Shown piece after piece: positions 221 to 63,389 of a DNA stretch of 64,000 nt. The stretch comes from Amoebophrya sp. A120 (lineage: Eukaryota; Protista; Dinoflagellata), in the NCBI GenBank assembly GCA_905178155.1, contig CAJINV010000019.1, positions 316,475 to 380,474 of the forward strand, in the 5' to 3' direction. Below the pieces are notes generated by a model, which was given only the letters and a program-made list of their open reading frames with translations, was not told the origin of the DNA and ran no database searches. Position numbers and translations under genes: made by a program. The first letter of the stretch is position 1. Every line of letters begins with the position of its first letter.

Positions 221-3200
221 CGCAGCTGCGCCCCCCCTTCGGACTGTTCACAAACTCGAGGCTGGGCTTCGTAAAGTCGCACCCGGTGATCAGATGCGGC
301 TTGTCCTTGCTATGGAAGCGTCAGGTTTGAAATCGACAAAGTTGAAATAATTTGCCATGCATAAAATGCAAGGCATGAAGTGCCTGTCTTGCAGGGATAG
401 CAAGTGAGGCGGATTGTGAGCCTGTTCAGGGCGGTTTGAAATAGAGCTACTAAACTCGCATGACAAAAGCAGTGCTCTGTGCCCAAACAGCATGACAAAT
501 TGGATTCCGGTACTCGGAAAGTTTGTCATGCGCCGCTTGATAAGTGGGCGCCCGACTCGACTGGTATCTGTTTTATGCATGACAAACTATTTCAACTTTG
601 ACGATTTCACACCTGACACATCCATACTTGCAGCCCTGCTCGTAATTCCCGTCCGTAGACAGGCGGTAAGGGCTTGTTCCGGACTCGCTGTCGGTCTCTA
701 GCAAGTGCGGCGGCGGGTCCCCAGAGAGTCCAAAGTACAAGAAGTCGTTACCCAGTCCGTTCATGATCATGGTTCCCGCACTCTGGCCTCCCAGCATGAG
801 CTCTGCCGAGTGCCAGCGCCGCGTCATTTCTTCCCAGTACGAGAGCAGAAACACGTCGTCGCCGGCATTCAGCTTCTCGTTCTTGGCATCGGCCATCAGA
901 TCGAACACGTTCCCTCCGCCGACGTAGTAATACGCCCCGTCGTTCGGGCCCTGGTTCTCGTTCTTTTCGTTTTCCGGCTCGTGTGTGGAGGGGGGGCAGG
1001 AGTCGGGAAACACCGACCTTTTGCACACAATCGTCTTGTCGTTGCGCGTCACAACGCCCCGCGACTGGAGCGGGAACACGGACTGTTGGGCGGTCTTCTT
1101 GTCAACATCCTTGTCGCTTTCTGGTGTCCCATCGTCGTCGAAAAAGGTCCAGTCAAACGCTTCGTCCCGCCAATCCCACTTGTACTGACCCACGGCATCC
1201 GCATCCCCGTCCCACACGGAGCTCACCTATCAAGTGCAAAAAATGTCTGGGTCTGGAAATTTGTGATGCTAAGTGTGGATGATGGAGACACTGGCCGCGA
1301 ATGCAGCCAAGCATGACAACTTTCCAGAAGGCTTCCTCATGCGCGGCCCGCATGAGAAACTGCATTCTTGTATGACAAAAGAGGCTGCGACTTTGGTTGG
1401 TCATGCAATACAGATTTCACAGGAATACAAGACCAGCATCACAAGTTCTAACTTTCCAGACCCAGACATATTTGCAATGGATATCACCCCCGATGGCACG
1501 ATCTTGACCTTCATGTTGTGACGGGGCAAGTGGACCCAATAGGAGAAGTATCAAATGTAAAAATGTCTGGGTCTGGAAGGATCCGAACTTGTGATGCTGC
1601 ATTTGGATGTCTAACAAATTTGTGTTGCACGAGCAGCAAAAGGATTCTAATTTTTGCTACGCGGAGAGGGCATTTGTCATGCGGAATAGGCATCAAGAGT
1701 CCCTCTGAAAACCTGTGAGGCTAGGGCATGCATGACAGACATCATGGCGGATGCAAACCGTGCATGACAAGTCTCAGAATCTTCCAGACCCAGACATTTT
1801 TACAGTTGATAAGAAGTCTTGGTAGTCGAATTCGCCGTGACTCAGACGCAACGCGTCGGTATCAAATGCAAAAATGTCTGGGTCTGGAAGTAGAGTGCAT
1901 TTTTGTCATGCTTGTCTGGCATGACTCTTAAATCTGTCATGCACGTTAGTACTACCCTAGAGCCGCATTTTTCTGTCATGTAGAAACGCAGTCTGTCACG
2001 CAGAGTAGGCAACATCTAGAAGGTCAGAAACTTGCCATGCTGAGCCAGCACTTGTGGCCTCCTTGTGATATATATTACGCCACCCAGCATCACAAGTTTT
2101 CAGACCCAGACACATTTGCAATGCATAGTCGGTGAACTGACGCAGCGAGTTTTCCACGTGGGATTGCAGTGCGTCCGTGAAGCAGCTCTTGACCAGCCAC
2201 TTGCCGGACTGCAGCTTCGTTTTGCAGTTTTCCGGCAGCTTCAACAGGCCCAGCTTCGCGTCTGGATTCATCACGATGTGCCGGATCCCCTGCGTGACGT
2301 TCACGCGCTTGTCGTCGTGGTCATCGCGATTCATGTAGTACTGCTCGCGAAACGTGTTCAGAAACGCGAGCGACAGCCCCGCATTGTTGATATCAAGTGT
2401 AAAAATGTCTGGGTCTGGAAGGATGTAACTTGTGATGCGCATTTCAGAACACACAAAAATCTCTGATGCATAGGCAGCAAAAGCTGCTCACTTCTGTCAC
2501 CAAAGTGGAGGATTTGTCATGCGGATTCGGCATTGCGGAAGCTTCTCGAAACCTGTGATGCTAGAGCTTCCATGCCAGACCTTCTGTATCATGCAGAAAC
2601 AGCATGATTCTTCCAGACCCAGACATTTTTACATTTGATAGTTGATCAGGGTGGACAATAGAAACCCGTACCCACTGCGTTTCTGCCTGTGGCTCAGCTT
2701 GAAGTAATAATTATCCACGTTGATGCGGTTGTCTAGAACACTCTCTGGGGCGTTCTCTTCCAGGCCGAGGCTGCGGCGGCCGTAGGCCTCTCGGCACACG
2801 GACGCCTTGTCTGACAGGTCGACATTGCCGCTCTCCACGTAGTTGAAGGGATCGTGCCCGACGGAGGCGCACTGGCCCATCTTGTCGCAGGTCACGGTGA
2901 TGTTCCAAATGCCCGCCTCACAAATCTCGTTCTCCATCTGGTCGATCAAACTTACCTCGTCGCACACCGCGGTTGTATTGCAATGAAAAATGCCCCCACC
3001 CCCGAACTTGATGGATACATCTGTATTGCTAACCTTTCCAAGTGAAACACTCGCCCTCTTGCATCTATCAGCATCACAGGTCTCCAATCGTGAATAGCAA
3101 AAATTTGAATTGCAAAAGACCCCAGCAAGAGCGGCGCTGGTCATGCAAGCGATGCGATACACGACTAGACTCTGCATCAGAAAGGTCCATAGATAGCCAT

Positions 3201-3943
3201 TGCCATACTCCTTTCATGCATGACAAAAAGCTTTCATTTGGAAACTTCGCATCACAATGTTTTGCAACTTTGGGGGTGGGGGCATTTTTCATTATAATAG
3301 GTCGTCGGGATTCGTTCGAACGGATCGTAGGGCTGCTTAAACGCGTCCACCTGGTCACGCGACAAGCTGAATGCGCAGTAATCTTCCGGGCCGGGCTATC
3401 CCACGAAAAAAGTGTTACAGTTACACATTTGTAGTTAATTCAGCAACGCAAATTTCTCTGCATGAGAGCGAAAACTTGTCTATGCGGAAATCCTACGGGA
3501 AAACACCTATGAAACGAGGCTCCTATGCGTATCCGGCATGACGCAGCTTGTCTGTCTTGCTTGGCCTGCAACACAATGTGTACCTGTAACACTTTTTTCT
3601 TCTGCGATACAGGTACGCGACACCGCTCCTTCGGAGGAAAATTGATGCAGTATTTGCACCCGGGTTTCGGACTCGCGGCGCAGGAGGCCGCGTCGCTCGC
3701 GTTCTCGTCACACTGAGGCGGGATGACGTCACCATCACCACGTGTATTTTTCTCCTGCTGCTCCTTGTGCAGACACAATTCCCTGGTTAAGGAGACCGCG
3801 GCAACGGTTTTCAGTTCGCCCAAGAACTGAATCGCCAGCAAGAGCAGGTTGCAACTACAACCGGTTGTACCCAGCAGAGCGGCTCGGGCTCGTCCCGCAA
3901 TTTTTGAATTTGCCGATGAGGATAACTGTGGCAGCGGAGACAT
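1..3943 (-). CDS. Cys-rich, probably secreted/surface hypothetical protein (3' end outside window), interrupted by 8 TIR elements
   Basis: ATG at 3943, hydrophobic stretch LLLLAIQFLG; at the junctions translated, removing element + one TSD copy joins the frames (CRVP|GPEDYCAF...IPTT|AVCDEV; EQGCK|DKPHL). No family recognised. Confidence 0.7.
311..626. mobile_element. Family C TIR element (TATGGAAGCGTCAGG)
   Basis: TIRs; TSD CTTGC/CTTGC. Confidence 0.9.
1228..1483. mobile_element. Family A TIR element (TATCAAATGYAAAAATGTCTGGGTCTGGAA)
   Basis: TSD TCACC/TCACC. Confidence 0.9.
1549..1811. mobile_element. Family A TIR element
   Basis: TSD AGAAG/AGAAG. Confidence 0.9.
1860..2127. mobile_element. 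Family A TIR element
   Basis: TSD GTCGG/GTCGG. Confidence 0.9.
2391..2640. mobile_element. Family A TIR element
   Basis: TSD GTTGA/GTTGA. Confidence 0.9.
2976..3299. mobile_element. Family G TIR element (TATT..AATGAAAAATGCCCCCACCCCC)
   Basis: TSD GGTTG/GGTCG. Confidence 0.88.
3397..3609. mobile_element. Family F TIR element (TATC...GAAAAAAGTGTTACAG)
   Basis: TSD CGGGC/CAGGT; frame restored. Confidence 0.85.
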
Positions 3944-5627: not shown

Positions 5628-8600
5628 CTATCCAAACTTTCCCCTTTCAAGCATGGCGTACAGCTGCGCGCAGTGTTTTGCCAGCTCATTCTTCCCCCCG
5701 ACTAGCCCCGCAAACGAGTCGCCGGTTTCTGTGGCTTGAAACAGCAGCTGCTGCAGCTTGGTGATGCTGCTGCTCTGGATCTGTTGCAAAACCGAAGTTT
5801 TGCTGGTTACCATTGCCTTCATCCACTGGAGAGTGTTCAGCAGATTCGCGTAACTGTGTATCGTGCGAAAAAAATTATGCACTAGCTTCAATCGAAATTT
5901 ATTTAGAGACGATTTTGCAATTCATTGCCACAAGCACAACAATTAAAATGCAAATCGCAAATAATTGTTGCTAGCTTACTCGACATGACAAAGAAAATTT
6001 CCCACGGCATAGAAGGCGCATTTTTTCCTAGGAGGAAAAATTATGACACGATGGCTCCCTTGCCTTACATTTCTAAGTAGCAAGAAAAGAACATCATTCT
6101 GTGTTCTTGCGTCCTGCTCCTGTCTTACGTCACAAGTTTCAATACAGCGAAGCAGTGTTTTTGTCGTTTTCCTCCGATAGTATTCGGCTCATTTCTGTTT
6201 CGCTGCTTGAAATCCTTCGGCAAAAGTGCCGAAAGTAGTTGGAACAAATAGCTTGCGTGTTTCTGGTCCAGTGTTGCGGAGATGTTGTGACTGATTTTCG
6301 TCAACCTGTGCAGCAGTTGCCGCAGGCTCTGTTCGTTCCCGTTGGCAAACACCTTCGCGAACCCCGTGTTGACATCCCCCTCGTGCTGAATCAATTCCAG
6401 CGCCTGGGAGACACACTTGTCGAGGACCACGGGCTGGTGCTGGTGCTGCGGATCATAGTTCTTGTTCCCTGAAAGGTGATGTGATCCTCTCTGCGGATGC
6501 TGCTTCATCCCCTTCTGTGGCGAAGAACTGGTTCTTGCAGGGTGACCATCATGATAGCCTTGTTGTGCAGCTTGCGACATCTCCACATCCTGCGGCTCGT
6601 ACATGTCAAAAAAGGCGTTTGCTTCCTGATCTTCATAGTTGTAGTTCCTGCCAGCAGCACGAGTAGAAGTTCGTCCGCCTTGTTCCCGGGTGAGCACGCT
6701 GCTAAAACTTCCGCCCAAACTGGACCTCCGGCTGTTGCTGTTCACATTGTTGAACGAGTAGCTGTTCCTGGGGTGATGCTGCGGCGAGCTGGGGTCGCCC
6801 AACCGCGGAGGGGAGGTGACTAACCTTGCAGACGTAGTTGTTGGCCCCCGGGTGTGGCTGTTTTGTCTCTGGGAGGTGGCCAACAGCAGCGGGTTCGCCT
6901 CCTGGCGGAGAAGGAGGGATCTCCGTCGCGCTGCCGTCTCCTGGTTGTCGTCTACTTGCTCTTGCGCGGAGGAGGAATTGGATTCAGAATGGTCGTCAGC
7001 CTCGATGTTGCGCTGATCGAGTAGATCATCGCGTTGCAATAAATTACTTCTCCCAGCACCTCCTGCGCCACGCATCACCACATTCTCCGCGTTCAGGTGG
7101 GTTCTGATTTCGTAGTCCAGCAGACTTTCTGGGTCGCAGTTCGCGCTTCCATAGTGCAGCTCCGTACTGTTAGCGGAGGAAGAAAGATTCAGCTTTGTGC
7201 CACTGCGGCTGTTGACCCCTTCTTGTGCTGCCGGTATATGATGTGGTCCTTTGTTGCTGCTATTCCGTATTTCCGACTCGTTGACGGGGAGTTGTCCCGC
7301 CCGCCCAATGTTGGTGCTTTTCACGCGGATTCGGGAGAACAACTGCTGGTCTTCATCGAAGTCGTTGGCGTTTTTTTCGAAGCTGTTGCTCCCGATCACC
7401 CGCGGCTGGTCAAATTCTTGATTGTTATTGAACGCCTTGTGCACAAACTGGTTTTCTTGTTGAAACGAACCTTCTACTGGCCGCTCGACGGTTGCGCAGG
7501 AAGATCCGCTCACCGCCCGCTGGAGCACCTTTCGTTGTCAGTATGTGAAAGAACACGTTGCTTACCGTGTTGCATTCTCATAGATTCGACTTTACCAACG
7601 AAATACAACAGGAACAAGAACGAACTCTGGATAAACAAAAGTGGCAACTTGTCCGAGCAAGAAGGAGAGTAGCTGCGCCCAAGTCGTTTACTTACAGATA
7701 AAACGTGTCTACTACAACTGCGTCAACCTCAACATCATGAGAACAACCACTCCGGTTGTAGTACACTTATACCTTGCTTCCCTCCGCGTCCGACCCTGTG
7801 ACAACACCGCCCCCGGACCCCGTATCAAATGTAAAAATGTCTGGGTCTGGAAGAATGCAACATGTGATGCTAACTTTGGACTCTAGAAAAATCTGTATTG
7901 CATGACCAGCAAGAGGAGTCTAGTTTGTACTACGCGGGGAGGGCGTTTGTCATGCTGAGTAGGCATCAGGAAGCCAGCACAAAATCTGTGATGCGCGGTC
8001 GTGCATTACAGACATCCTGGGTCATGCAAAACATGCATGACAAATCTCAGAATCTTCCAGACCCAGACATTTTTACATTTGATACCCCGTTCCTCTGGAC
8101 GAAAAGCTTCCGCGGTGGCTTATAACGTGCTCAGGTGTTACAAGAATCTCAAGCGCTACAATAGAATCTGGAATTTGTGTTGCACAAATGCGTAACATCT
8201 GGCCTACTCCCACAGGATCGCGCATGACAAGTTAGTTTCGGAACTCCACACCCCATGAGAATTATGTGGCGAAATGTGTATTGCGAAAACGCCAAGTGTT
8301 TGTATGGTACTGGTGCTGTTCATGCAAGACAAATTCCAGACTCTATTGCAACAATTGAGATCGTAACACCTGAGCGGGCCATATGGCTCGACGAGGCGTT
8401 GTTCGTAGTTCCTCCTGCCAAAACCGCGTGGTCCAGCTTCGAATAGCTGTTCGAAGCGGTCCGCTTGCTCCCCGACTCGCGGCTGGCGGCTCGGCTGACG
8501 CTGCGATTCACCTATGAATTGCAAACATGTCTGGGCCTGGAAGAGTGTAACTTGTCATGCTAAGTCTGAATCATGCAAAAATCTGTGTTGCGTGACTACC

Positions 8601-11600
8601 AAAAGTTGTCCACTTTTGACCAAGTTGAGAGGGAGTTCTTTCTCATGGAGGACCGGCATGATAGAGATCTCAAAGAATCTGTCATGCTAGGTCCTGCATT
8701 CCAGACCTCACGGGTCCTAGACAATCTGCATGACAAAGCTAGCAATCTTCCAGACCCAGACATATTTGCATTTGGTATCACCAGCTCGTGCGCGATTTCG
8801 TCGAGCGGGATGCTGTGCGGCCCGAGGTTTTATGCGAAGAAAAAAGTGTTACAGTTACACACTCTGATGCAAGACCAGCAAGACAGACAACCTTTGTCAT
8901 GCAGGAAATGCTTTCCAGCCGCTGTTCATTCGCATTTTCCCTTGTAGTCTTTTGCTATGCAGAGCAACTTTGTGATGCTGAAATTGCAACACATGTGTAA
9001 CTCTAACTACACTTTTTCCTGTGATACGTTTTCCTCCCGCTGCAATAGTACTGCACCTTGGTCCGACGTAACCACTACCCCGCCGGGCGGCTGCGGCGGT
9101 TGCAGATGACTTGAGGAGGAATTAATATTCCGTTGTCCGGAATAGCTGTTGCTGGCCTTTCGGCTGCTGGTTGCGCTGTTGTCGATGACTTCTTCGGGGC
9201 CGTTGTAACTGTTCTGAAAATCGTCCTCCTCGTCGTCTTCCGGCGACAGACTCGGCAGGTTCTCATCCGGGTTCGGCAATAGACTTTTCGCAGCAGTGGC
9301 GGCATCCATGTTGACATAATTTTTTGATACACTAGTCCCGCCGTTTCTATTGCCACTGGACGTCGCTGTTCCCAGATGTTGATAGTCCTTGAAAGCTGCC
9401 GCCTTGCTGGATTCCAGCAACCCGTCGACCAAACTTTGCACCAGCCCCTTCTTGGAAAACTGCGCGTCTTTCCGGACCGAGTTCCGCATGGGCGCGGAGG
9501 GGACGGAGGTTGCGCTAGCGGGTTTTTGCCACACCTCCTGGCAAAACTTCAGGGATTTCCGCAAGTTGGCGCCCGACCTGCCCGCGGCCAGGCGCCAGAG
9601 GTCGAGGTTTTCCTCCGCCAGCGTGCCCAGTACGAGCGACCGGTGCTTGTCTACCAAGTGGGGCTGTTGGTTCTATCCTCAGCAAAAACGCCCCCGCGCT
9701 AGAGTTGTCATGCTAAAGGAATTGCAGCACACTTTGCCCCCCCTCTGCCCCAGGCCGCAGACGCCAGAGTTGTCATGCAAACGCGCCATGGCAGGAACAT
9801 TTGTAATGCGCAGCTCCATGAAAGGAATTTGTAATGCTGCAAACACGATGCGAAAATGCCTTTCTCATGCGGCTTCTCTTGCCAATCAGAACTACACTGC
9901 AGAGGGAAACTTGTCATGCACCGCTCCCAAAACTTGGAGATTTGTGTTGCTAGATTCCCAACTTGACTATACCACTGGGGTGGGCACGTTTTCGCTTAGG
10001 ATAGGTTCCCGAAATTCTTCAGCACGTACCGCCCGATCTGGCCGAGGAGCGCGGAACAGATGACGGCGAGGTCCTTGGTCAGCCAAAATTCCTCGGGAAG
10101 AGAGGTCGCAGGGTCGTTCTGGATATTGTTGTTTCACTTTTATCTCATACAGACGATTACGATGCTTGAATCAATTTTACATAGCGATGATCACTGTAGT
10201 CTACATTTATTTCACCTAGGTTTCAGAGACCGGGCGACGTGTATCTACCAAATGACAACTGAATTTCACATTCATGGAGCGCACCAGTACCATGTTCATA
10301 AATGTCTATACCTCCACCACATCTCTGCTTCCCCTTTGCGTCCCGCCCTTCCCCGCAACAAAATCCGGCTTCGCGCTCGGGCCGGACAGATGCTTCACTA
10401 GAACCGCGATTATCAACGTTAATTGCGAGCTCGTGAATTCCCCCGGCTTCCTTTCGAGCAACTGGGACAGAACGGTCAGGATGGGTTCGTGCAAGTCGTG
10501 CGCGGATTTGAGAAGTTGGAGCACCTTGTTCAGGTCCAAAAACGCCTCAATGCCGTACTCCACCAGCAACTGCTGCAGCACGAGCAGGAATCCTGATTAA
10601 AAACGTCCCCACACCAGAGTCATCTGCTAGACAAATCAACCCGCTTTGGTTGTTTGTTGGCATGACAGGTTTGTCCTCGTAGTGTAGTCCTGTTTTAGGT
10701 AGGTCAGCAGCATCACAGATCTATCATAGCATGCTGGCCCTACCATTACAAATTTCGAAACACGACTAGAAAATGCTTCTGATAGGGCTCCGCATCATCA
10801 TCATCATCATCATCATGAGAAACTTTTTTGGCATGCAGAATTGCATGACAACTCTGGGGTGGGGATGTTTTTACACGGGATAGCAGGCAGCCCTTCCTTT
10901 CCTGCAGACTCCGGCCGTTCTTTCGGCGCATCGCTCGGTCCAGAAGGAAATTCGTGAAGAGCTGAAAAGTGGCATCTGGCTCGCCAACCCCGGTTGTTTG
11001 GTCCTTGTTCGACGAAAGGTCGTACTGCGAGTCGTTGAAGGCACTGGAATTCGGATTCCCAACCCCAGCGCCAGTGCTGACCAGTGCCTTGTAGGTTTCC
11101 ACGACGCAGCGGCTGACCGCCGGGCAAAACTGCTCGTCCTTCAAGTGGTTTAACACGAACGACAAGCCCGCTCGCAGCTTGAAAAACGGGAACGACCCCC
11201 GCTTCGTCAGTTCCGGTAGGAGGAAAAGCAGCTCGCGCTTCGCGTGGTGGTTGCTCATGGGCTTCCGCTGGTTGAACGCCAGGTGCTGAAACTTCAGCAC
11301 GCTGTGCTCCGGGAAAACGCTGATTACCTGGCGAATCTCCGCGACGCCGCGCGGCCGGGTCGTGTGGTTTTCCAACTTCTCCAGCCCCGCGAGCAATTTC
11401 CGTTCCCACTTGGAGACGTTGGGCCCCGGGTCGCGCGAGCCCCACCGCAGCACCCGGTCCTCGTAGGTCTCGTGCAGCCGCTTGAAGTCTTTCGCTTCCG
11501 CCTCGGCGCGGTCGGGCGATCGCAGTCGGTGCGGCAGTCTCCGGCGCTTTTTCAGGAACTGGAACACCTCGTCGTCCCTGGAACCAGTTGCGTCTTCCTT

Positions 11601-13059: not shown

Positions 13060-16000
13060 CTACATCCACTTGTTATTCAGTGACACGACCCGGCTTTTGC
13101 TTCCGTCCTGCACGGTCGGTACGGACGCTAAATCATGCACCGCCCCCTCCTTCTGCGCCGCGGCCGAACGGCACTCGAGCCGGACCTCCCCCTCGTACAG
13201 CCCTCGTTGCATTTGCTCGATGGTTCTCGTGCCGAGATCTTGCATGCCGTGCTTCACGCCCTGGAGAACGTAGGGAATTAGAGCGGAGACGGAACCCTGT
13301 GGTCAACAAGATGGTATCATTGTAGAAAAGTGCTTCTCGTCTGTACCTAAACCTATGCACCTCACTGCATTGATCAAGCCAAAAGCGTTTAGCCACACAC
13401 GACCAGGCACCGTCACACGATCCATCACAACAGATTCATCTCCGGATTGGCAGGCAAACGGTATTCAAACCGTCCTTCTTGCATCAAAAGATAGTTTGTT
13501 CTATACCTTGTCAATCACTGCTCCGGCGACCCCCGTCCGGACGTATCCTGAGTAAAAACGTACCCACGCCAGAGTTGTAATGCAGATTTGCAAAGACAGG
13601 AAGACTTGTAATGCGCATCCCCATGCGAGCCATTTCCAGTCGTGTTTTGGAATTTGTGATGCTGTGAACAGGATGAGCAGCTGGATTTGTGATGCGGCTG
13701 CACTTGCTAACCTGCACCACACTGCAGAGTGCAACTTGTCATGCGTGACTCACAAAACGGCTAGGTTTGTGTTGCACAATCCCCATCCTGACTCTGATGT
13801 GGGTACGTTTTTACTCAGGATAGGACGGAAGAGGTCGTTAGGTGCATGGAGGTCCTCCTGTGGCCACTCGCTGCGTTTCTACCCGTGCTATCAAAAGGAA
13901 AAATTCCCCCGCCTGGTATCAAAAAGAGGTTTCTGATGCTGGATTTCAGTACACAGACCAGATTTGTCTTGCAGTAGAGGACTGCAGGCATATGCCAAGC
14001 CTGAGCCGCGATGTTTTGGCGTAGGCTCCTAGCATGAAAAACGTCGATGGTGTAGGCCCAATAGCATCACAAACCGCCTGCATGATGCGGCGGATTCTCT
14101 GGATTTGCCTGCATGCAAGACAGACAGGATTTGTGGTCACAAATACGCATCACAGATTTTCAGAAGGATGCGCTTTCAACACGGGGAGGGAGGATTTTTC
14201 CTCACGATATGTGCGGCTGCTTGGGCTCAGGGATCCGGAACCGCCTCCGCCGGCGCTGGAAGCCGTGCCACGAATACCTTGCATACAGAAAGGAAATTAT
14301 ATCGAGCTGGACTACGAGGTGAAGAGAGCATAATCGAGATGAGCATTTCGATATCCGCTTTTCGTCTATCTCTCAACACACCACTTCCTGTTCCTTGTCG
14401 TACCAGGAGAGCGAATAAAATGCGCGAAAAAGTAAGTAAAGTCCCTCAATGTTACTGTATGTGGTATCACCTCGAAACGCCTTCACGCGGAGGCCGTTGT
14501 GGTAGAAATAGTCTCCCGGCGTTTCTTCTGTTCCCGCGAGCATGGATCCGCAAACCACAGCGGCAGCGCCAAGACACAGCGCCTTCATCATTTGCCCACT
14601 GTTACCGACACCGCCATCTGGGAAATTTTTTTTTTGTGAAGAAAAGGAATGCTTCGAATGATAGCAATCAATACACGTAGATAGGTAGCACCACCACGTG
14701 GTCCCAAGAACACCACGCCCTTGTTGCAACAAGTCGCAGGACAATAAAACATCTTCCCTTCTTACCGGCCAAGACCGGCACCCCGTATTTTTCTCTCGCG
14801 TATTTTGCCACCGTATAAACCGCAGTTGCTTGCGGTCTACCCACCGCCGCCACATCGCCGGTCATGGCAACTGAGCCGCTACCCATTCCCACCTTTATGG
14901 CGTCCGCTCCGGCGTCGCAAAGAGCCTGGTTTGGGGCGCGGTTTGGATCATTGTAATTTACTAGCATGGGGATCAGAATTATTGGGGTACGATACTGCAA
15001 GACGCCATTTATCTGCATGGAGAGAAGCGAACACTCATACAAATCTCGTCCGTGCATACCGAATGAAAAAGTGAATGGAGCTGCAACACCTTATATTCAT
15101 ACGGTACCTTAGCCTGTCTGCAACTGACAACGTTTCCGGCGACGACGTCTATGCCTGGAAAAGACTTTTTGATCTTTTTCAGTAAGTCGATCTGCCCCTG
15201 TGAGTCCCCCTGGTCCGAATCCAAACACAAAACATCAACGCCACATTGTACGCATCTCTGTGCCCGGTAAAAAGCGTCTTCGTTTTCGCCGTGGGACAGA
15301 CAGGGTATCGCTGCAGCGACCTGTTTTGAATGAATTTACGTCGAATTTTCAATTCGATTTCCGCATCACAGGTCTTCTGCATCGTGTGGACCACAGTGCT
15401 GACAACGAAGAAGAATCGATTCGGAAGAAATAATCGGAAAAATGCAAACCACACGCGATTAGACATCATGGTCTCCCTGTCTATAAATGTTCGTACCAGC
15501 AGCTGTTTATTCGCGTCTTTACTTGCCAGCGGGTATTCTCGATTGGTTTTCAGGTCTGTCCTTGAAACCAGCGCCACCAAATCGCCCTCCTTGTTGACGA
15601 TGGGCAGCTTGCCCACCTTCGCCTCCTGCAGTTTCTCGTTGGCCTTCTGCAGGGATATTGGTTCTATCCCGGTGATTAAATCCGTGGTCATCACCTCGGA
15701 AAGCTTGGAATTTCTATCTTCCACCAGGTCAATATCCCGGCTGGTGACAATGCCGAGCAGTTTCCCGCCAAACTCGCCCGTGGAGGTGATTGGTGCGGAG
15801 CTGTACCCCCGCTTCTCCTTCATTTTGTCCAGATCGCGAATGGTTTGGTTCGGTGTCATGCACACAGGGTCCATGATGAACCCATTCTCGTACCTTTTCA
15901 CGTCCAAAATCTGTTGCGACTGCGTTTCCACGTCCTGGTTCCCGTGGATGATGCCGATACCGCCCCACAGCGCCATGGCGATGGCCATTTCTGCCTCTGT

Positions 16001-34750: not shown

Positions 34751-35152
34751 GGCATCTGCATCTCCGGCAAGCGGGGTAACGTCCTTCTGTTCCTCCGGTG
34801 TTTGGTGATCCGGGGGTAGGTGCAGCTGCGACGGGGAAGAGTATAAGTGACTGCAAACAACAGTTGTGTCTGGTCGTGGGTCTACGTAGTTGTAGAGTAA
34901 TCACAGGAATACGGCTCTGTACAATCTCTGTCTGTGAGGGGCCTAAGACTGTGAAAAGACATATGGATGCAAAACAAAATCATGTAAATCATTTCTCATT
35001 CAATTCTCCGCAGACCCTAGCAAACAAGACCGAATCTGAATTGCATACGAAGTACTGCACCGCGATGGCGACGAAAACGGAAACCACCGCAAGAGTCGTA
35101 TCCGGAAAAAAAGCGTGTCAATAACATCTCTGACTTGCTGATGTTGCAACAG

Positions 35153-45913: not shown

Positions 45914-46581
45914 TATTTTCGTTTGGTCAATCTCAATTGCTCGCTCCTGGTCATATTGATAGATAAATGTCTCTACTTACACCTCCTCCGATAGGTCATT
46001 CACCTTCTTAACGGGCGTTGCAAATCACAAAGGAAAGGATTGGATCACAAGAACTTTATTCTCTTGCAAGGGCACGAAGGAATTGGATCACAAGAGAAGA
46101 TTTCAGTTTTTTATTGCTTGTGGTCACATCAGCATGTACAAGTAGTTTAGGATCTTCCTCCTTGAAAGGAAAACAATGCTAGCCTTAGCGGCGGATGAAA
46201 AGAAAGGTCAAGGTAGTTTATTCACACAAAGGAACGGACGCGGAAGATGTTGCTGACATCGTTGACACGTCGGGAGCTAGTATAGAATGCTGTACCACTA
46301 CCAGAATGGCACAGATTCGACGCGCAGGTCTCTGTGTTTGTACAACGTTGAACACATGTCGCACTTTGAGTCAAACCACACGAAGCTGCAAGTGTGGCAT
46401 GAAAGTAGCAGGGCGAAGAAACCAAACCACCTTCGACTTCATTTACAACTAACGTAACCGGAAATAACTCATAGTACTGCTTTCGAATTTGTATAGATTA
46501 TATGAATTTTTCATGGGGGTTGGCAGTGAAAGTCAGTTTACGAAAAATGAAATCAAAAATCAAACTAAAAAAACGCGGCTA

Positions 46582-52600: not shown

Positions 52601-52760
52601 GAGGTCGACAGGAGCAGTCGCGGGTAGTTTTTGTGTAGCGCTGGTCAGAAGCAAGACTAGGAGTGGGAGTTGTCGTGAGAAGTAGATAGATTGTTCCTCA
52701 CGCCGATGATCCACGATTGATCGCGTTTGCTACTTACCCGCACGAGGACAAACTTGTTTC

Positions 52761-55112
52761 TTAACCCATCACGACATCGCCGTCCTTGTCCAGAGTGTTC
52801 CCTTCTTCGACGATTATTCTCTTCTTGAACAAATCTGACCCGGCAACCACTGGCGTGCAGCCCTGTGAGGATGTCGATGTTTAGGTGTTGTGAATTATGC
52901 ATAACAGTTTCACCTCACATGCAAATAAGGAAATTTTCATGCATGCTCAGGCATGGAAAATAAATCCAATGCATGATAGATGTGCTCCTTATGAATTGCA
53001 AAAGTATCGCACTCGTATAAATGCATTACAAATTTCCCCAGCATGAGAAGTAAAATTTGTCATGCGGATTTACCTTCAGAAAAAAATTTGTAATGCATGA
53101 CTGCAATACGAGTACTTACAAAAAAAAAGACGCACTGTTTTCCTTACCATGGGGAAGGGTGCGAACTCCGCCTTGTAGGCCTTCTGGTTTTCGCTTCTGT
53201 AGGCTCGGATGTGCTTCTTGCCTTCCTCTTTCAAATGCAAAAATGTCTGGGTCTGGAAGAATCCGAAATTTGTTATGCTGTTTTTGGATGACACAGAATG
53301 TCTGTCAGGGAAGCCCTAGCATCACAGATTTTTAGAGGCCTTCCTGATGCGTATTCCGCATGACAAATGCCCTCCACGCGTAGCACAAACCGGACTCCTC
53401 TTGCTGGTCATGCAATACAGAATTTTTTACAGTCCAAAGTTAGCATCACAAGTTCCAACCTTCCAGACCCAGACACTTTTGCAATCCATATCCTTCGTGA
53501 TAACGCAAATGTCGCAGTTGCCACCGGATCCAAGGTCGTTGAAGATACCTTTTTTCATAGATTCACCGGTGTTATCTTTGTTCTCATGTTCGTACTAGGC
53601 TGGATACGATGTTTCACGAAATCACATGAGAAATTGAAAACGGTCGCACTTGAAGATGAAAACAACATAGAGTATTCGTATTGTTTCTCGTCATGCTAAA
53701 TAATCGCTGACGATACCGGCTGATATTGCGTCGGCTACAAGCTCCTTTCCCTCCTCAATGGTCATGTTTTCTCGGTACCTCATTTCCATAACGGCCATTG
53801 CTGCCAGGGAACCTGTTTTCATTTATTGATTTTGATTTTCATCGTTGCTGATACGCGACACAGGAAAGGAGTGCGAAGTAAAGATACGCCTGGTTACTGT
53901 CCCTAAACCTCCTGCTTGTTGCAGCGATGCATTTACATTTAGCATGACAAGTAAAAAAAGCAAACATACCTGATCCCATGGTGGTGTATGGTAGCTTGTC
54001 TGTTGACCCGTGTGCGTGAATTTGGTACAGATGCGGCCCTTTCACATCATACCCTCCGAGGACCAAATGGCACCCGATGTGGCCCTGGTGTAAGATGCAT
54101 TTGGGTTTTATTTCATTCTTGGTTTCCTTTTCAGCGTCGTGAGTCCTACAATCCTCGTCCATGGAGTTCCGCTATAATCCAGCATCATGACAAGCAGTGC
54201 CATCTTCTGTCCTTCACGACAAGGTGAAGCACATCTTCGAAACAGAAAAAGGAAAAAACCACCAGCAGTTGTCACCAGTGCTTCTTCACTGGTCATGCTC
54301 ATGCATGCGCTCAGAATTATCATGTATCTATACTAGTACTTTCTTACCTGATATCTGAACAGCATCTGGCTGAGCCTTCTGACCACGGTGCAGACCCTTA
54401 CTTCGGTTCCCACATTCAAGGAGTGGATTTCCATTTGTCGCTGCATCAGTTCCGTTGTCGCGGTCAAGTCGGCGCTCGTTCCCGCCCCCGCGCACTGGAT
54501 GTTATCCGCGATGGGGTGGAGCTTGTCCGCGTTTTTGTCGGCTACTATCGCGCCAGCAGTCGCTCGCGTGTCCGCCCCAAGAATAACGGCATCTGTTGAT
54601 TTATTTTGGAGGTGGATTTATTTTGTTTCACTTACTACAGAAGATGAACTCGCATGCGTTTGCGTTAAGCGTAAGGAACTACCTCTGACGCAAAGGAAAA
54701 GGAACATGGTACAAACTCCACTTGTGAAAAATGATAATCACAAAAATATACTGCCGCAAACGATGCCGCAAATTGTCGTCCCGGTCTTCTTTGCCTGCGG
54801 GAAAGCAGCCTTGCCGGTCAGCGCTCTTGCCTGTGTGTGGTTTTGTGGTTCTTGATTCATGTTTTAGCTGTTGAACACATACAAAAACATAGATAAACAA
54901 GAGTGAAGCTATGCATGACAAACAGCGATCGGAATTTCTTGCAGCGTTAAATTGCGTTTCCGCATGGCAAGTAGAAACCAATTTATTTCCAATACCAGTC
55001 GTGTGTTCCTGGCACAATTGCTGAAGTCGAAACCTCCTCGGTCCAGCTCTTTCAAGTAGTCGAATTTGTCGGCCTTTTCCTGCCGCGTCGTTTCCACAGC
55101 CGCTGCTGCCAT
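52761..55112 (-). CDS. PSMB7: 20S proteasome subunit beta-2 (PSMB7/PUP1 type)
   Basis: [11 protein letters not shown] propeptide, [61 protein letters not shown]; GT-AG and GC-AG introns, 1 complete TIR element. Confidence 0.95.
52990..53113. mobile_element. Truncated family H element inside a GT-AG intron of PSMB7
   Basis: Left TIR TATGAATTGCAAAAGTATCGCACTCGTA intact; right TIR stops after TACGAGT; host intron 52863-53147. Confidence 0.8.
53229..53490. mobile_element. Family A TIR element
   Basis: TSD TCCTC/TCCTT; left end TTT. Confidence 0.87.
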
Positions 55113-56139: not shown

Positions 56140-59100
56140 TCACCCCAGCGTCCCGACGCTCTGCAGGGCCCCGGCCACTGTGTCGACCGCTGCGTCGGTG
56201 GCGCCCTTGATGGCGATGTTTGCGGTCGGGTGACCAGGCGTGAATTGGGCGTGGAGAAAGACCTTTGCGTTTCCGCTTATGGTTTGCCCAGCAAGCATCG
56301 CTTCCTGCCCGATGATCTCGACACGACCGACCCCGAGGGTTTGTTCCAATTTCTGCACCAGGACGTCGCAAGTGGGGACCTGATTGTCGATAGATGTAAG
56401 TAAATGCTTGCAATAGTCTATGTATCTGCAGCTTCAGGGGGAGAACAATGAATCCTATTTGGACCTTCTCAAGGTTGATGGACATCAACATGTTGATTCC
56501 CAAAAAAATGCAAAGGATGAAGACCCTTCCAGCACACAGAATGAAAAAAAAGGCCGTTATTAACATCTTCACCCACCGCTCAAAATTCCTAGTACCGATG
56601 GCCCCAGCCTGACAGCGACGCTTCTTTCCGCGGGTAGCGTGCCCCACTCCGCTCCGAGTTGGTCGATTTTTATCGCGAAAGGCGTCAAGACGTGGGGTCG
56701 TTGATCAAGCGTTTTTACCGGAGACCGGGGGAGGGGGGAGAAGGTGTTATTTCCAACGACGGGTGTCGCTGTCGCAAGTCCTGGGGAGGCCGATGATGAA
56801 AAGTCGAGGGACAAGAGATCGTTTCCGGTGGGGGGAGCTTCCGTTCCTGTTCTCGCAGTCGGACCCCCGGGAGAGGTAGATATGAGCAGGTCTGCAGCAG
56901 ATGAGGTTTGTCCAGTTGAGGCTGCTGGTGGTCCAAGACTCAGCAAATCTTCCTCCGCGCCACCTAGCAGATCGCTGCTGGATCCCTGCGCAGGGTAATT
57001 AGGATTTTTGGTAGTGCCACTACCACCACCGGCTCCTGAATCAAGTAGATTTGATGCCCCGTTTGGATCCCCAAGTAAGTCCACCTGCTTCTGCTGCGCG
57101 TCGTCCGCCGGGCTGGTGTGCGTTGTTGTCGTAGAGCTCGTTGCGTTCGAGGAAAGAGACAGGCTCGCTGCGACCTTCTGTTGGTGTGCCGTGCCCGCTC
57201 CGGGTGGCGGCTATCAAATGTAAAAATGTCTGGGTCTGGAAGGCTGCAACTTGTCATGCACATTTTACATGGCCCATGACGTCTATGATGTACTCCCTAG
57301 CATTACAGATTTTCTGAGTGCTTCTTGATGCCTATTCCGCATGACAAATGGCCTCCCCGCGTAACACAAACTGGACTCCTCTTGCTGAGCATGCACTACA
57401 GATTTTTCTAGAGTCCAAAGTTAGCATCACAAGTTCCAACTTTCCAGACCCAGACATTTTTACACTTCATAGCGGCTCAGGTTGCACGGTAACCGGCTGC
57501 GCGGGCGTCGCCGTCATACCGGAAAAGAGCGCTGCGGCCATTTTTTCTCTTTCTATCAAAAGAAAAAACGTCTGGGTCTGGAAACTTGTGACGCTGGGTG
57601 GCGTCTCATGACGAGGCTACAGATGCTGGCTCAGCATGACAAGTTTCTGAGCTTCTAGGTGTTGCCTATTCCGCATGACAAACTGCGCTTCCGCATCACA
57701 GAAAAACGGAGATCTTGGGTAATGTGCATGACAGATTTAAGAGTCATGCCAGACAAGCATGACAAACATGAATTCTTCAAGACCCAGACATTTTTACATT
57801 TGATACTTTCGGTCTGTCGCTTATTCTCCATCGGCGCGGGCCTGGGCGCTGTTTGGGGCTGGGAATTAGTCGTCGTGGCTCCAGTTGATTGAGAACCTGA
57901 TGCTACGCCTGCCGCTGTGGTGGCCGTCCCGGTAGAACTTGCCGACCCCCCGGCCACATTGTTGGGCAGTTGCTGCGGCTGCAGTGCGGCAGGCTCGTTG
58001 TACCTGGTAATTTTGCAAAGTGAACTTTAATTGTATATTACGGGTAGCAAGTTTGGAAAGTGAGTAAACACTGCGTGCGAGTAGGTGCTGGCATCTCGTC
58101 CCTTCTCTTGGTTCTAGGAGAATACAGCTCTGCAGGAGAAATGGTGTTTTCTCACTCCAACTACCGGCAAAATAGGACGACGACGACGAGAATTACATAT
58201 CATAGACATGTATACGACCATCATTTTCATCGTTCATCGATCTCTGGCGTGCAAAAACACTTACCCTGCCGGCCCCCATTTTCTCGCCGCATTTTTCCCG
58301 GTCGTTTGCAAGCTCAGCCCCCCTGCTTTCTCGCTGTTCACGTCGAATAAGCCGCCGAGCCCCGCATTCTGCAGCTTGCCCTGCATCCCAGGTTCCGCAG
58401 CGGAGGACCCACTTGACCCGCCTTGTGCTAATGCTCCGGAAACACTGCCCGCCCCTCCCAACAAATCCCCCGAGCCGGCGCCTGCCATCAGGCCGGAGGG
58501 CGTGTGCATCTTCGGGCCGACCTTTGGCGCTTCGTAGGGGGTGAAATTGATCGCGGCTTTGTGCAACGGCTTGGTACTTGATGTTCCCGAAGGATTTGCA
58601 CTGTTGCCGCTGTCTCCACCCACCCCACCCCCGGACATTTTCATCTTCCTCCGCTCCTCTTTCGTCAAATACCGACTACTTGCGTCCGCGTTCCGGGAAA
58701 CGTAATTGTTCAGAAAAGACAAATTTTTGTCGACCGCGACGTCCTCGCAAGATCCGTCGAAGGGCAAGACGATCTGCATCACCTTGGTACTGCTTTGCTC
58801 GACCATGCGTTTGAGCTCGTAGCACCGCTGCTGCAAATCCGTGGACCTCGACTCCCGGTACTTTTCGACCACCTCCAAAATTGCCGCGTCGTTGCGCAGC
58901 AGAATGTCGTTCTGCGCGGTCAGCTTGGTCAGCGCCGAGATCAAAAAGCATCTCGTTTCTGTTATAACCCGCTCAGGTGTTACAGTCTCAAACGTTACAA
59001 TAGAATATGGAAATCTGTGATGCAAGAAGTGCATGAGCTAACCTACTCTCACAGGATTGCGCATGACAAGTTTCGGAGCCCCAAACCGCACTAGAATCTG

Positions 59101-62100
59101 CCGAAATTTGTATTGCAGAAAGTGGAACGCTCTGCGAGTCTGTCATGCTCATCATGCAACACAAATTCTAGATTTTATTGTACCGTTTGAGATTGTAACT
59201 TTTGAGCAGGTCATATCTGTCGCCGTGGCGCCGCTGCTCGTCCCGCCGGACTGCGCAATACCGGTGGAGATGATCTCTGTCGTCGTGCTGCTGGTCCACT
59301 TGGACAGGCAGTCGCAGAGCAGATCCGTGATCTCATTCACGTTCCCGCGGTAGCCGTATCAAATGCAAGTAAGTCTGGGTCTGGAAGAACAATGTCATGC
59401 AGATTTTGTATGACGCATGATGTCTGTGATGCATGCCGTAGACTTTCTGATGCCCTTACCGCATGAGAAATGCCCTCTCCGCGTATCAAAAAGCTGGACC
59501 TTTTTTGCTGTTCATCATGCAATACAGATTTTATGTCGAGTCCAAAGGTAGCATCACAGGTTGCATCTTTCCAGACCCAGACATATTTGCAGTCCATAAG
59601 CCGTCCAACGTACACAAAGACCCGTACTCGCCGAGCACCCACGCGATCACCTGGATCAACACGTCGGGGAAGCGGGACCCCTTGTCCGTCCCATTGCCGT
59701 ACTTCTCCAGCAGTTTCACAAACGTGTTGACCGTGTACACCCGGAATTTTTCGTCCTCTTCGTCCGACGTGCCCGTGCCCTCGGCGACGAAACGCATATC
59801 AAATGTAAAAGTGTCTGGGTCTGGAAGATTGCCAGGTTTGTCATGCACATTTTGCCTGACTCCTGATGTCTGTGATGCATGCCCTAGCATCACAGATTTT
59901 GTGCGGGCTTCCTGATGCCTATACCGCATGACAAATGCTCTTTCCGTGTAGCAAAACTTGGGCTCTCTTTGCTGCTCATGCGATACAGTTTTTTTTCGAA
60001 TCCAAAATCAGCATGACAGGTTGGATTCTTCCAGACCCAGACATTTTTACACTTGATAGCGCATCAGATTGTGCGACACGGTTTGCGGCAGCAAGTCGCC
60101 CCCCAGCTGGAACACGTTGTATCAATTGCAAATATGTCTGGGTCTGGGAAATTCTGAGATGACTTGTCATGCACGTTTTACATGAGCCATGATGTCTGTG
60201 ATGCATGTCCTAGCGTCGCAGATTTTTTGAGGGCTTCTTGATGCCTAGTCCGCATGACAAATGCCCTGCTCTCCGCGTAGCAAAAATTGCGTTCTCTTTG
60301 CTGCTCATGCAATACAGATTTTTTTGGAATCTAAAGGCAGCGTCACAAGTTGCATTTCTCCAGACCCAGACATCTTTGCATTTGATACGTTGGTCATGGT
60401 GTCCAAATACCAGTCGTTGGACGGCGCGTACCGCTCGGCGAGTATCGCAAGGAAAAACTGTTTCACTGTGGACTTGTGATGCAGAAAGTGTATCGCAGAC
60501 GTCTTTGTCTTGCTACATATGCAAGAAAGTGCGTTTTTAGGCGTGTCTTTCCTTGGGTGGCTCGCATGGCAAACTTCCTTTGTGATGCAAAGCAAACTTG
60601 TGATGCAGAAGTTGCAAAATCATCACAGTGAAGCAGTTTTTTCGTGGGATAGCGAGGGTGCAAATCCTACTCGTGAGCTCCTTGCGCAGGTGGTTGTCCT
60701 GGGTGGTTTGCAGGTGGAAAAGAAGCTTCTCGGCTATCCTGTGCAAAAGTATCGCACTCGTAGTAATTGCAATCATGCATCACAAATTTTTTTCTCAAGG
60801 TAAATCCGCATCACAGATTTTATTTCTCATGCTGAGAAAGTTTGTAATGCATTTATACGAGTACGATTATACTTTTGCAATTTATATCGGCGACGACCGT
60901 GCAATTCTGCGGGTTCGTCATCTTATACCTGACAGTGTATGGGGGCGGTCGTACCTTTTGTTCTTCATGTCTTGTCATGCGAAGGTCATGTGATGAGAAG
61001 AACTCTGTGTCATGATACGCATGGACGAAAACCTCTTGATAGCATATTATACAGCAAATCCAGCGTCTTTCGCTTGAGCGTTTCATCCGGATCCTCCAGG
61101 CAATCTACTACGACCATCTGATGCTCAGCAGCGTATTTCGGATTCATCTGCACAATCGCTGCGAGGCCGGTGACGCCCAGGTACCTTGATTTGTGGTAGA
61201 TGATGAGTGAAGTTTGATGCCAACATTCATCACACGCGCGACGACTATGATGTACGTACTTATCCTTTCCTATGATGTACGTACTTATGTATCAACTTGC
61301 CCGGCGGCTTCATCGCGACGTTGTCATAACAAACAAGTAGAGAGAAAACAGAAGACAGAAGCATGCCATCCATCATCAGCAATACAAGTTTTCACTTTCA
61401 GTATAAAGTACTTCAAATTGTGGTTGTCACTGGAGATGAAGCGCGAGATGGACTGCGCGGCCTGCTCCAACAGGGGCGGATGCGGGTAGATTTTGGTGAT
61501 GGTGTTGACGCACTCGTACAAAATCGCGTAACCGACGTTGACGCCCATGTCGGATTTCTTCATCATTTCCCCCAAAAGCGGGTACATCAACTCGCTGGCC
61601 TTGGGGTCCGCGTGCCCCAGCGTGCCCAGGATGGACAATAGCTTGATCTGGATCCAGGGGGCCGGCACCCGGTGGTAGTCGAATTCCCGCGGCAGCCGGT
61701 GGTCGATGATTTGCTTCAGGATGGACAAAAAGCTCGGCACCAGGTCCTTGTTCGCGATCGTGTTCTGCTTGGCCAAGTCGTGGAGCATGTACAGACTGGC
61801 ACCCATCACAGACGGGTCCTGGTCGCAGAGAACCTGGGGATGGGGGAGAAGTTATTTTTGTGTTTACTGGCGGCAGGGATTTGTTCTTCTTCTTTCATAA
61901 TTTACTTCGCATAGCGATCACAAATAATATCATGTTGTTGATCTGCAGTAGGAGCGAAGACATGATTTGCCATGCATGTATCATATACCTTCCTGACATT
62001 GTCGTTACAGCTGGTTGCAATGTTGCTGTCGAGCTTGTAAATTTTGTGCAGAGCCTATCCAAGAAAAAAAGTGTGTCAGTGTAACTTTCTTTGGCCGACA

Positions 62101-63389
62101 GCATCACAAATTTGCTCTACATGACAGAGAAAACCTGTGATGCGTGGTTTGTAAGGGGAAATGCACATGAAAAAAGGACTTCATGGCTGTGTGGCATGAC
62201 AGGTGTAACTCTGTTGCATGTTTTGCATTACAGAGTTACACTTACACAGTTTTTTTCTTGCATAGCGCCACAATCGCTTTCTTCCGTACGGATTCGTGGT
62301 TTATCAAGTGCAAAAATAAGTGGGTCTGGAAAAGTGTGAACTTGTCATGCAGATTTTCCATGACCCATGAGGTCTGGAATCCAGGACTTAGCATGACAGA
62401 CTCCGCGAGGTCTCTGCCATGCCTATCCCGCATGACAAACCCCCTTCCGACTTGGTCAAAAGTGGACAGGTCTACTTGGCACTCATGCAACACAGATTTT
62501 TGCATGCTTCAGATTTACCATGACAAGTTGCCACCTTCCAGACCCAGACATATTTGCATTTGATATGGTTGTGCGTCAAGCATTTTATCACCTCTGGCAG
62601 GATCGCTGGGACCATCTATCCAAGAAAAAAAGATTCTTGTCGGTGTAACTTTTGTGGCGGAACAGCAATGCAAATCTGTCTGGCATGACAGCAAAATCAT
62701 AAACCTGTCATGCGTAGTAGATACTACGTGAAAACGCGCTTGACTAGACCTTACAGCTACAATTAGAATTACAATGCGTGACCCGCATGACAGACGCAGT
62801 CATCTTGCATGTTGCGCACCTACCCAAAGTTACAACTACAATCTTTCTTTGCTGGATACCATCTCTTGGTTGACCAATCTGCAGATGCTGATCAAGGCTC
62901 CCGCGACCTCGAGATGGTTGGACGACTTCAGGTCTCGCTGGAGCGTGTTGATTAGCAGCAGCATGAATTCGTGGTCCTTGTGCAGGAAAATGTTACAGGC
63001 TAAGTAACCGATCCGCTTCGCCATGATCTGCTTCTCGTTACACAGCTTCACCGCGTGGATGTAGGCCAGACTGCAGTCGTGCCCCAGCATCTCCACGTAG
63101 ATGGCGCGGATCAGGAACCTGATGGGAAATAGTGAGATGATGAAGTTCTGTCATGCACAAGTACCGCACCAGAAAAGAAAGAGTCAATTCAATTGCCCGC
63201 TACGCATCACAAATCACAGTCATAAAAATCAAGTACTCTTTCATCCTTTTGAGCGAAACACCGGGCAGGTTCACTGATGCTTTCAGGGCAGCAACCTCAT
63301 TCAGGATGATTTTGTCCTCCTCTTGCTTGCTTCTGCTTTCCCCGATTTGCTTCACGAGTTCAAAGAACTCCTTCGAGAGGTGGCCGCCC
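56140..63389 (-). CDS. AP4E1: AP-4 adaptor complex subunit epsilon; 11 TIR elements; start codon in an unresolved upstream exon
   Basis: HLSKEFFELVKQIGESRSKQEEDKII, YVEMLGHD, KRIGYL, LLINTLQRDL, HRLPREFDYHRVPAPWIQIKLL, LAERYAP, WVLGEY, DLQQRCYE, LPFDGSCED. Confidence 0.93.
57212..57471. mobile_element. Family A TIR element
   Basis: TSD GCGGC/GCGGC. Confidence 0.9.
57554..57805. mobile_element. Family A TIR element (252-bp subfamily, reverse orientation)
   Basis: TSD CTTTC/CTTTC. Confidence 0.9.
58963..59215. mobile_element. Family E TIR element
   Basis: TSD TCTGT/TCTGT. Confidence 0.9.
59357..59598. mobile_element. Family A TIR element
   Basis: TSD AGCCG/AGCCG. Confidence 0.9.
59797..60058. 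mobile_element. Family A TIR element
   Basis: TSD ACGCA/GCGCA. Confidence 0.9.
60120..60387. mobile_element. Family A TIR element
   Basis: TSD CGTTG/CGTTG. Confidence 0.9.
60443..60651. mobile_element. Family I TIR element
   Basis: TSD GCGAG/GCGAG. Confidence 0.9.
60735..60886. mobile_element. Family H TIR element
   Basis: TSD TCGGC/TCGGC. Confidence 0.9.
62056..62264. mobile_element. Family J TIR element
   Basis: TSD GAGCC/GCGCC. Confidence 0.88.
62302..62565. mobile_element. Family A TIR element
   Basis: TSD TGGTT/TGGTT. Confidence 0.9.
62617..62858. mobile_element. Family K TIR element
   Basis: TSD CCATC/CCATC. Confidence 0.9.

Follow-up and report, generated by a model that had tools for sequence, protein, structure and literature searches.

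Introner elements have been described in the dinoflagellate Amoebophrya sp. A120 by Farhat et al. 2021 (PMC7789003), who report 29,850 copies. Their inverted repeats start with TAT, followed by seven variable bases and at least three A; they are bordered by direct repeats (DRs) of 3–5 nt, and their removal has RNA-seq support, the position of the borders being left unknown. According to the text of that paper, no cognate transposase was found in A120. The datasets of another study (PMC12130899) list 58 A120 introner families. In 21 of the 58 A120 rows of one dataset, most are classed as DNA elements with terminal inverted repeats (TIRs) of unknown superfamily; for one A120 row, manual inspection gave a 5-bp target-site duplication (TSD), and the study also notes a TIR family, number 38, that is integrase-like. 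Here we analyse a window of 64,000 nt of the A120 genome (contig CAJINV010000019.1, positions 316,475–380,474), in which nine genes are interrupted by 71 such elements.

The window elements are the published A120 introners, and the phenomenon is already known. They belong to the same genome, form families and are absent from transcripts, and they share the inverted repeat with TAT, seven variable bases and an A run, the border DR, a length of about 250 nt, the hairpin, the RNA-supported removal and the lack of GT-AG ends. Nothing differs in kind; the DR of the window elements is uniformly 5 bp, within the published 3–5 nt, and lies outside TAT..ATA. A first-pass annotation of this DNA had stated that Amoebophrya introners were reported and their removal mechanism unresolved, which is upheld for A120. 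What we add to that paper is that the removed length is always the element plus 5 nt, that both orientations occur, and that the cut register can be narrowed to 3–4, with the predictions that result. We found no study resolving element removal in a literature search outside which lay subscription papers (e.g. Roy et al. 2023), two supplements of PMC12130899 and the figures of PMC7789003; a term search of PMC13326754 gave no mention of Amoebophrya.

Transposon-derived elements in the window

The whole window was searched for pairs of TAT and ATA ends with inverted arms and a flanking 5-bp DR. The raw scan gave 69 pairs, 44 of them with a perfect DR, as compared to 1–10 pairs (0–3 perfect) in 30 block-shuffled windows. 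After overlap removal 61 pairs were kept; the one at 31210 was set aside and nine family members with one altered terminal base were added. The resulting 69 elements have a perfect DR in 52 cases and an imperfect one in 17, the very counts that the first-pass annotation had given. Two further diverged elements that it had missed (5859–6179 and 31210–31479) were confirmed later. The 71 elements, 52 with a perfect DR, are 125–704 bp long and occupy 19,439 bp, or 30% of the window. Six extra candidate pairs were left uncounted, as they have weak arms or lie, as far as read, within canonical introns.

The DR is exactly 5 bp long, since its two copies are identical in 63–69 of 71 elements at offsets 1–5 versus 14–18 of 71 at offsets 6–8. 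Shuffled pairing of the flanks yielded a mean of 0.85 perfect repeats, with a maximum of 5. Mismatches affect 25 of 355 DR bases (7%), and the median identity of an element to its nearest copy is 85%; set against this divergence, the DR seems free to decay. The DR thus resembles a target-site duplication in decay more than a pointer that removal would require.

The 69 elements were grouped into 7 multi-copy families (28, 10, 10, 6, 4, 4 and 3 copies) and 4 singletons, a threshold-dependent result that takes the place of the roughly 15 TIR families first proposed. Copies within families are up to 94.6% identical, and hundreds of element flanks from other loci are present in a sequencing run, X5, described below. 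With respect to the host gene, copies of all 7 families point either way (15/13, 4/6, 6/4, 3/3, 3/1, 1/3 and 2/1), the minority orientation accounting for 27 of the 65 multi-copy elements, so that no one-way internal signal appears to be needed. With their TIRs, fixed-length TSD, short size and insertion in either orientation, the elements have the features of miniature inverted-repeat transposable elements (MITEs), or non-autonomous TIR DNA transposons, and we infer that such transposons left the 5-bp duplication.

On the coding strand, neither the initial T nor the first A of the closing ATA varies (69/69), and the remaining four terminal positions together carry 9 changes among the 69 elements. 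Pairing between the arms of the 71 elements is high at positions 1–3 (67–69/71) and 11–13 (66–68/71) and low at positions 4–8. A recurrent internal mismatch is seen at arm position 7, Watson-Crick paired in just 26/71 elements, the lowest count of all, between the well-paired positions 1–3 and 9–13.

Two other features of the elements were observed. An 8-base motif, GCAT(C/G)ACA, occurs on either strand in all families: of its 204 matches, 188 fall inside the 69 elements, which make up 18.8 kb; another 4 are in 12 canonical introns and 12 in the remaining 42.9 kb. It is possibly a shared transposase-binding site. Three long elements (20298–20959, 38693–39396 and 39477–40165) each contain, by eye, about 400 additional bases, which in two of them lie between duplicated element segments and in the third form a nested insert that has inverted repeats and a G+C palindrome. 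Variants of the telomere-like TTTAGGG occur in two of the three, with one tandem pair at 39974.

Removal from transcripts and the cut register

Deleting each element with one DR copy, together with the canonical introns, rebuilds four database proteins letter for letter. These are P0001 (11 elements), P0122 (7 elements, 1291 aa), P0121 (11 elements) and P0125 (5 elements), which cover 34 junctions, 2 of them with a GT-AG option available. The exact reconstruction of P0001 agrees with the junctions that had been proposed for AP4E1. Removal of the other 37 of the 71 elements is supported by the reading frame alone; frames of 300–990 codons appear only once elements are removed. Restoring a frame does not by itself separate removal of the element length +2, +5 or +8, but the proteins and the contig offsets do.

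A contig of 4429 nt from the RNA-like run X1 spans 64000–55740 in 4359 nt. This matches to the base the length predicted by removing the 11 elements of the AP-4 epsilon gene at length +5 plus its 7 GT-AG introns. Within the contig, the sub-span over six elements is offset by +30 and that over two elements by +10. Removal at length +2, as by a symmetric cut, was rejected, because it predicts 4392 nt. Nearby frame-keeping GT-AG pairs (at most 12 nt away, present at 23/71 elements), whose use the first-pass annotation had named as an outcome that would overturn its reading, misfit both the 34 protein junctions and the X1 length. The joined AP-4 epsilon aligns with the orthologue of strain A25 gap-free at 7 of the 11 junctions as displayed. 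The DR copies of element 5859–6179 mismatch at 3 of 5 bases, yet it is removed as length +5 in the P0122 model. Of two raw RNA runs, X8 gave 196 reads and X9 gave 12; almost all of them matched repeats in part, no exon was covered, and the runs are thus uninformative. Where it can be checked, the elements are absent from messenger RNA though most are without normal intron ends, and the removed length is always the element plus 5. The view that they are transposon-derived inserts of coding exons, removed with one DR copy, is upheld, the removal by the four proteins and the X1 contig.

Run X5 behaves as DNA: its depth is even, near 30, introns are retained, and unique contigs run into the elements. 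Its contig 62539–64000 includes the whole element 62617–62858 with no difference. Element-free genomic sequence, which the first-pass annotation had suggested looking for, was not found at this locus in the X5 contigs, rare or stage-specific forms being beyond their reach: the contigs drop rare forms, most joints are undisplayed, X5 is possibly the assembly's own source, and other life stages are outside the data. As the joined form is found in the RNA-like contig and in the proteins, whereas elements are kept in the DNA-like contigs, removal is placed at the RNA level. RNA or DNA excision had both been envisaged; the RNA alternative stands, and the DNA branch with pointers does not agree with the retention in X5 nor with the removal of the element with a 3/5-mismatch DR.

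Imperfect DRs can fix the cut register that PMC7789003 leaves unknown. We call k the number of bases of the upstream DR copy that are kept in the spliced product; the bounds on k derive from deposited protein models and from residues of homologues and paralogues, not from RNA reads. The allowed values are 1–4 for P0122, 3–5 for P0121 and 0–4 for P0125, with 3–4 as their intersection. The imperfect DR of 27419–27695 needs k of at most 4, and the same Glu is present in the homologue P0130, a bound that, like the two that follow, does not depend on the annotation. At the 40660 junction a Cys kept in the paralogue also needs k of at most 4, and at the 31210 junction a Gly common to both paralogues (by eye) needs k of at least 2. 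What we take to be a phosphodiesterase motif at 17917 favours k of at least 1. The DR mismatches are synonymous in 11 of 20 cases; the non-synonymous ones lie at positions 1, 2, 3 and 5, and all that are testable fit one register of 3–4. On these sequence comparisons, the cut would fall after DR base 3 or 4, if a single register holds. The junction of the proteasome gene reads VITK/EG or VITE/EG depending on the register, so that the VITK/EG reading of the first-pass annotation is right in one register and gives way to VITE/EG in the other.

Candidate mechanisms of removal

As had been noticed at first, most elements offer no in-register GT-AG pair: such a pair is possible in any register for 4/69 elements and GC/GA-AG for 5 more, with neither for 60/69. 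With k=4, 70/71 elements acquire an N-TA donor (TA at +2/+3), and the canonical introns checked begin with GTA in 13/13 cases, 8 of these being GTAT. In this register the element ends read as the canonical GTA donor with only +1 free, and this suggests that a spliceosome in modified form is at work. As the best reading of the data we lean slightly towards a relaxed U2 spliceosome that uses an AG-free acceptor and has the predicted hairpin of the element as its guide. The separate second excision system proposed at first is neither shown nor needed, the best-fitting register giving a canonical-like GTA donor.

With such a relaxed spliceosome, pairing of the element ends would place the two exons next to each other. 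The 5′ cut would be made one base before TAT, giving an intron start N-UAU that resembles the canonical GUA(U/C/A) except for its free +1. At the 3′ end, the cut would be made four bases past the terminal AUA without need of an AG, and would be set by the distance from the hairpin, not by the DR sequence. Wherever an element had inserted, this geometry would take out one DR copy, and this would account for the way in which elements could spread through exons. Under the same geometry the terminal AUA has its first A at intron position −7, and these two cut positions with a candidate branch A at −7 are the predictions offered. If true, the relaxed-spliceosome reading would show how far a spliceosome can drop the GT-AG rule and how a transposon can become harmless at any exon position.

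In A120, 83 of 89 spliceosome proteins are retained and U1 snRNA is reported as undetected, as it is in A25 (PMC7789003); a relative with GT-AG introns, the strain ex Karlodinium, has U1 (PMC12005148). In Table S4 of PMC7789003, the nine commonest non-canonical motifs of A120 all have T at +2, and the nine A25 motifs are all TT-. A more far-reaching proposal, which we put forward only tentatively, is a U1-less spliceosome that would apply one fixed geometry to tens of thousands of introns: an N-UAU donor, +1 and AG ignored, a cut four bases past the hairpin, and a possible branch at −7, the A with which the terminal AUA opens. Any insertion that has such ends and a 5-bp duplication would in that case leave no scar on removal, whatever its site and orientation.

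Several points weigh against the relaxed spliceosome and the register on which it draws. TA at +2/+3 under k=4 is partly built into the definition of elements starting with TAT, and TAT could be conserved for the transposase instead. Under k=4, G at +1 is not enriched (28/71, p=0.12) and neither is the acceptor AG (7/71, p=0.34); G at +5 is not enriched either (16 vs 9, p=0.23), and the asymmetry of terminal changes between the 5′ and 3′ ends is not significant (p=0.14). Although all 66 folded elements pair their first with their last 35 bases, as the reading would have it (66/66; median z −5.8, 12 shuffles each; set folded without the three elements above 400 nt and the two that were added later), this fold follows by construction from the inverted repeats, and the donor would sit paired in the hairpin and must open. 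The lower bound of the register has its sole support in the imperfect DR of 25913–26118, which needs k of at least 3 in P0121, and all six mismatches at DR position 4 are synonymous, so that both k=3 versus k=4 and a sliding cut are allowed. The proteins P0001, P0122, P0121 and P0125 are predicted gene models, not sequenced proteins, and X1 is called RNA-like from the tool's guess and from its behaviour (genes only covered, CT..AC introns skipped). The motifs in Table S4 of PMC7789003 may depend on how ambiguous junctions were placed there, and its authors call the sites variable. Spliceosomal removal itself is a step that we infer.

Removal of the RNA segment without the spliceosome, by a structure-recognising endonuclease and an RtcB-type ligase or by a euglenid-like route, with cuts measured from the base of the hairpin, is possible but rather doubtful. 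The absence of a usable acceptor signal, with 15 different acceptor dinucleotides in register 4, would be in line with it, as would the orientation independence, the strong terminal stem and the presence of canonical introns in the same genes; moreover, euglenid introns with TIRs and TSDs exit as circles without lariats (PMC11282704). However, in the best-fitting register +2/+3 are those of the donor that this genome itself uses, a cut symmetric around the hairpin (length +2) is excluded, and the spliceosome itself appears altered, since U1 is reported missing while GT-AG introns are still spliced.

A cut that slides within the DR, or varies by family, would be compatible with either chemistry, and we consider it unlikely. 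Synonymous mismatches in 6/6 cases at position 4 and in 11/20 overall are expected if either DR copy reaches the messenger RNA, variable sites were described by the original authors (PMC7789003), and mixed annotated donors occur inside one family in Dataset rows of PMC12130899. Nevertheless, the testable non-synonymous mismatches are all consistent with one register of 3–4, and ambiguity of the aligner can be expected to mix the annotated ends.

Programmed deletion from DNA, as for the internal eliminated sequences (IESs) of ciliates with the DR copies as pointers, is very unlikely: the anatomy of TIRs with a short direct repeat and the exact loss of one DR copy are as it would have them, but X5 contigs run into the elements and one contains an element whole, DRs with 2–3 mismatches are tolerated, and the same X1 contig skips both elements and GT-AG introns. 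Equally improbable is template switching of reverse transcriptase across the hairpin, with elements that stay in the messenger RNA, be it of pseudogenes or with bypass by the ribosome, for although a hairpin with short direct repeats is a known signature of this artefact and all the RNA evidence is cDNA-based, a single contig lacks all 11 AP-4 epsilon elements at once, the joined gene aligns gap-free with its A25 orthologue at 7 of the 11 junctions as displayed, the long frames exist only after removal, and poorly matching DRs are also removed in deposited models.

Host genes and comparison with known systems

Every gene frame detected in the window lies on the minus strand, matching the unidirectional clusters reported for the A120 genome. 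The nine genes hold 7, 7, 2, 25, 6, 10, 2, 1 and 11 elements, and the genes below are all on this strand. Pfam gave no domain in 27 of the 32 frames queried. The AP-4 epsilon gene (coding sequence 63530–56140) contains 11 elements, at 57212–57471, 57554–57805, 58963–59215, 59357–59598, 59797–60058, 60120–60387, 60443–60651, 60735–60886, 62056–62264, 62302–62565 and 62617–62858. Its seven canonical GT-AG introns are located at 63390–63522, 63119–63236, 61834–61988, 61185–61411, 60929–61052, 58004–58264 and 56380–56595. An exon of this gene is 99% identical to P0001, whereas its identity to the A25 orthologue is 85%, and two more window exons match A120 proteins at 100%. P0001, P0121 and P0122 all bear the name of A120, to whose genome the window thus belongs.

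An unnamed gene with a 616-codon frame once elements are removed carries seven elements (311–626, 1228–1483, 1549–1811, 1860–2127, 2391–2640, 2976–3299 and 3397–3609). A one-ended remnant of the largest family lies just downstream of it at 93–220, where the window edge may truncate it. The gene of P0122 also has seven (5859–6179, 7823–8084, 8121–8383, 8513–8777, 8831–9026, 9674–10003 and 10589–10882). An IMPDH-family gene with Pfam matches to IMPDH and CBS has two (13544–13822 and 13889–14209; frame by eye). At about 14860–14880 of the minus strand it encodes GSGSVAMT at the expected catalytic Cys site; compared with what we take to be the catalytic-Cys motif, this sequence suggests that the protein is possibly inactive.

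The largest number of elements, 25, is found between 17917 and 29409 in a gene with membrane/ion-transport-like and phosphodiesterase parts. They lie at 17917–18121, 18198–18476, 18573–18835, 19123–19451, 19519–19727, 19924–20245, 20298–20959, 21197–21462, 21512–21773, 21813–22134, 22768–22916, 23015–23334, 23835–24157, 24219–24483, 24561–24706, 24765–25074, 25245–25514, 25553–25831, 25913–26118, 27419–27695, 27761–27971, 28022–28171, 28291–28572, 28656–28940 and 29183–29409. The region 17690–29527 is probably a single long gene for a membrane protein with a phosphodiesterase, split in databases as P0125 and partial P0121; the homologue P0127 covers both parts.

Two paralogous genes at 31000–34900 and 38400–45976 align with a score of 295 and have no Pfam match on single exons; from their motif we presume a JmjC-like nature. 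Paralogue B has six elements (31210–31479, 32066–32326, 32848–33062, 33242–33521, 33592–33850 and 33995–34260). Paralogue A has ten (38693–39396, 39477–40165, 40660–40821, 42223–42474, 42563–42814, 43039–43317, 43384–43635, 43726–44004, 44031–44155 and 44220–44530), and their removal yields frames of 988 and 309 codons. Another gene has two elements, at 46744–46959, which presumably lies in coding sequence, and at 48238–48489. The proteasome beta-subunit gene (Pfam Proteasome) has one, at 53229–53490. One of the canonical GT-AG introns of this gene contains, from 52990 to about 53140, the decayed copy of an element from the 150-nt family; unlike the exonic copies, it has lost one arm.

Beyond the A120 introners, the window elements can be compared with several systems. 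Like the IESs of ciliates with pointers, they are lost exactly with one repeat copy; IESs are removed from DNA, whereas window elements are kept in DNA-like contigs. As with the non-conventional introns of euglenids (PMC11282704), ends are paired by TIRs, TSD-like repeats are present and GT-AG is absent, but euglenid introns leave as circles and have other end sequences. The introners of A25 are also non-canonical introns with TIRs and DRs, whose commonest donors, TT- with repeats starting TTA, likewise place T-A at +2/+3; they differ in having another end motif, a shorter length and strain-specific families (PMC7789003). Micromonas and Aureococcus introners are, similarly, non-autonomous TIR transposons turned introns that lose one TSD copy on splicing, but they carry or co-opt GT/GC and AG, a pair that 60/69 window elements lack (PMC11282704, PMC7789003). 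As opposed to U2-type introns, most window elements do not have GT/GC-AG ends; their donor would match that of canonical introns at +2/+3 in 70/71 cases if the register is 4, register 3 being also allowed. Finally, the non-canonical introns of Fritillaria share with them a MITE-like origin with TIR and TSD and are handled by an adapted spliceosome; their dominant end motifs are AG-AC and AG-AT, whereas the acceptor of the window elements is free (PMC11282704). The Fritillaria introns thus indicate that a spliceosome is able to adapt in the way that we favour for A120 (PMC11282704).

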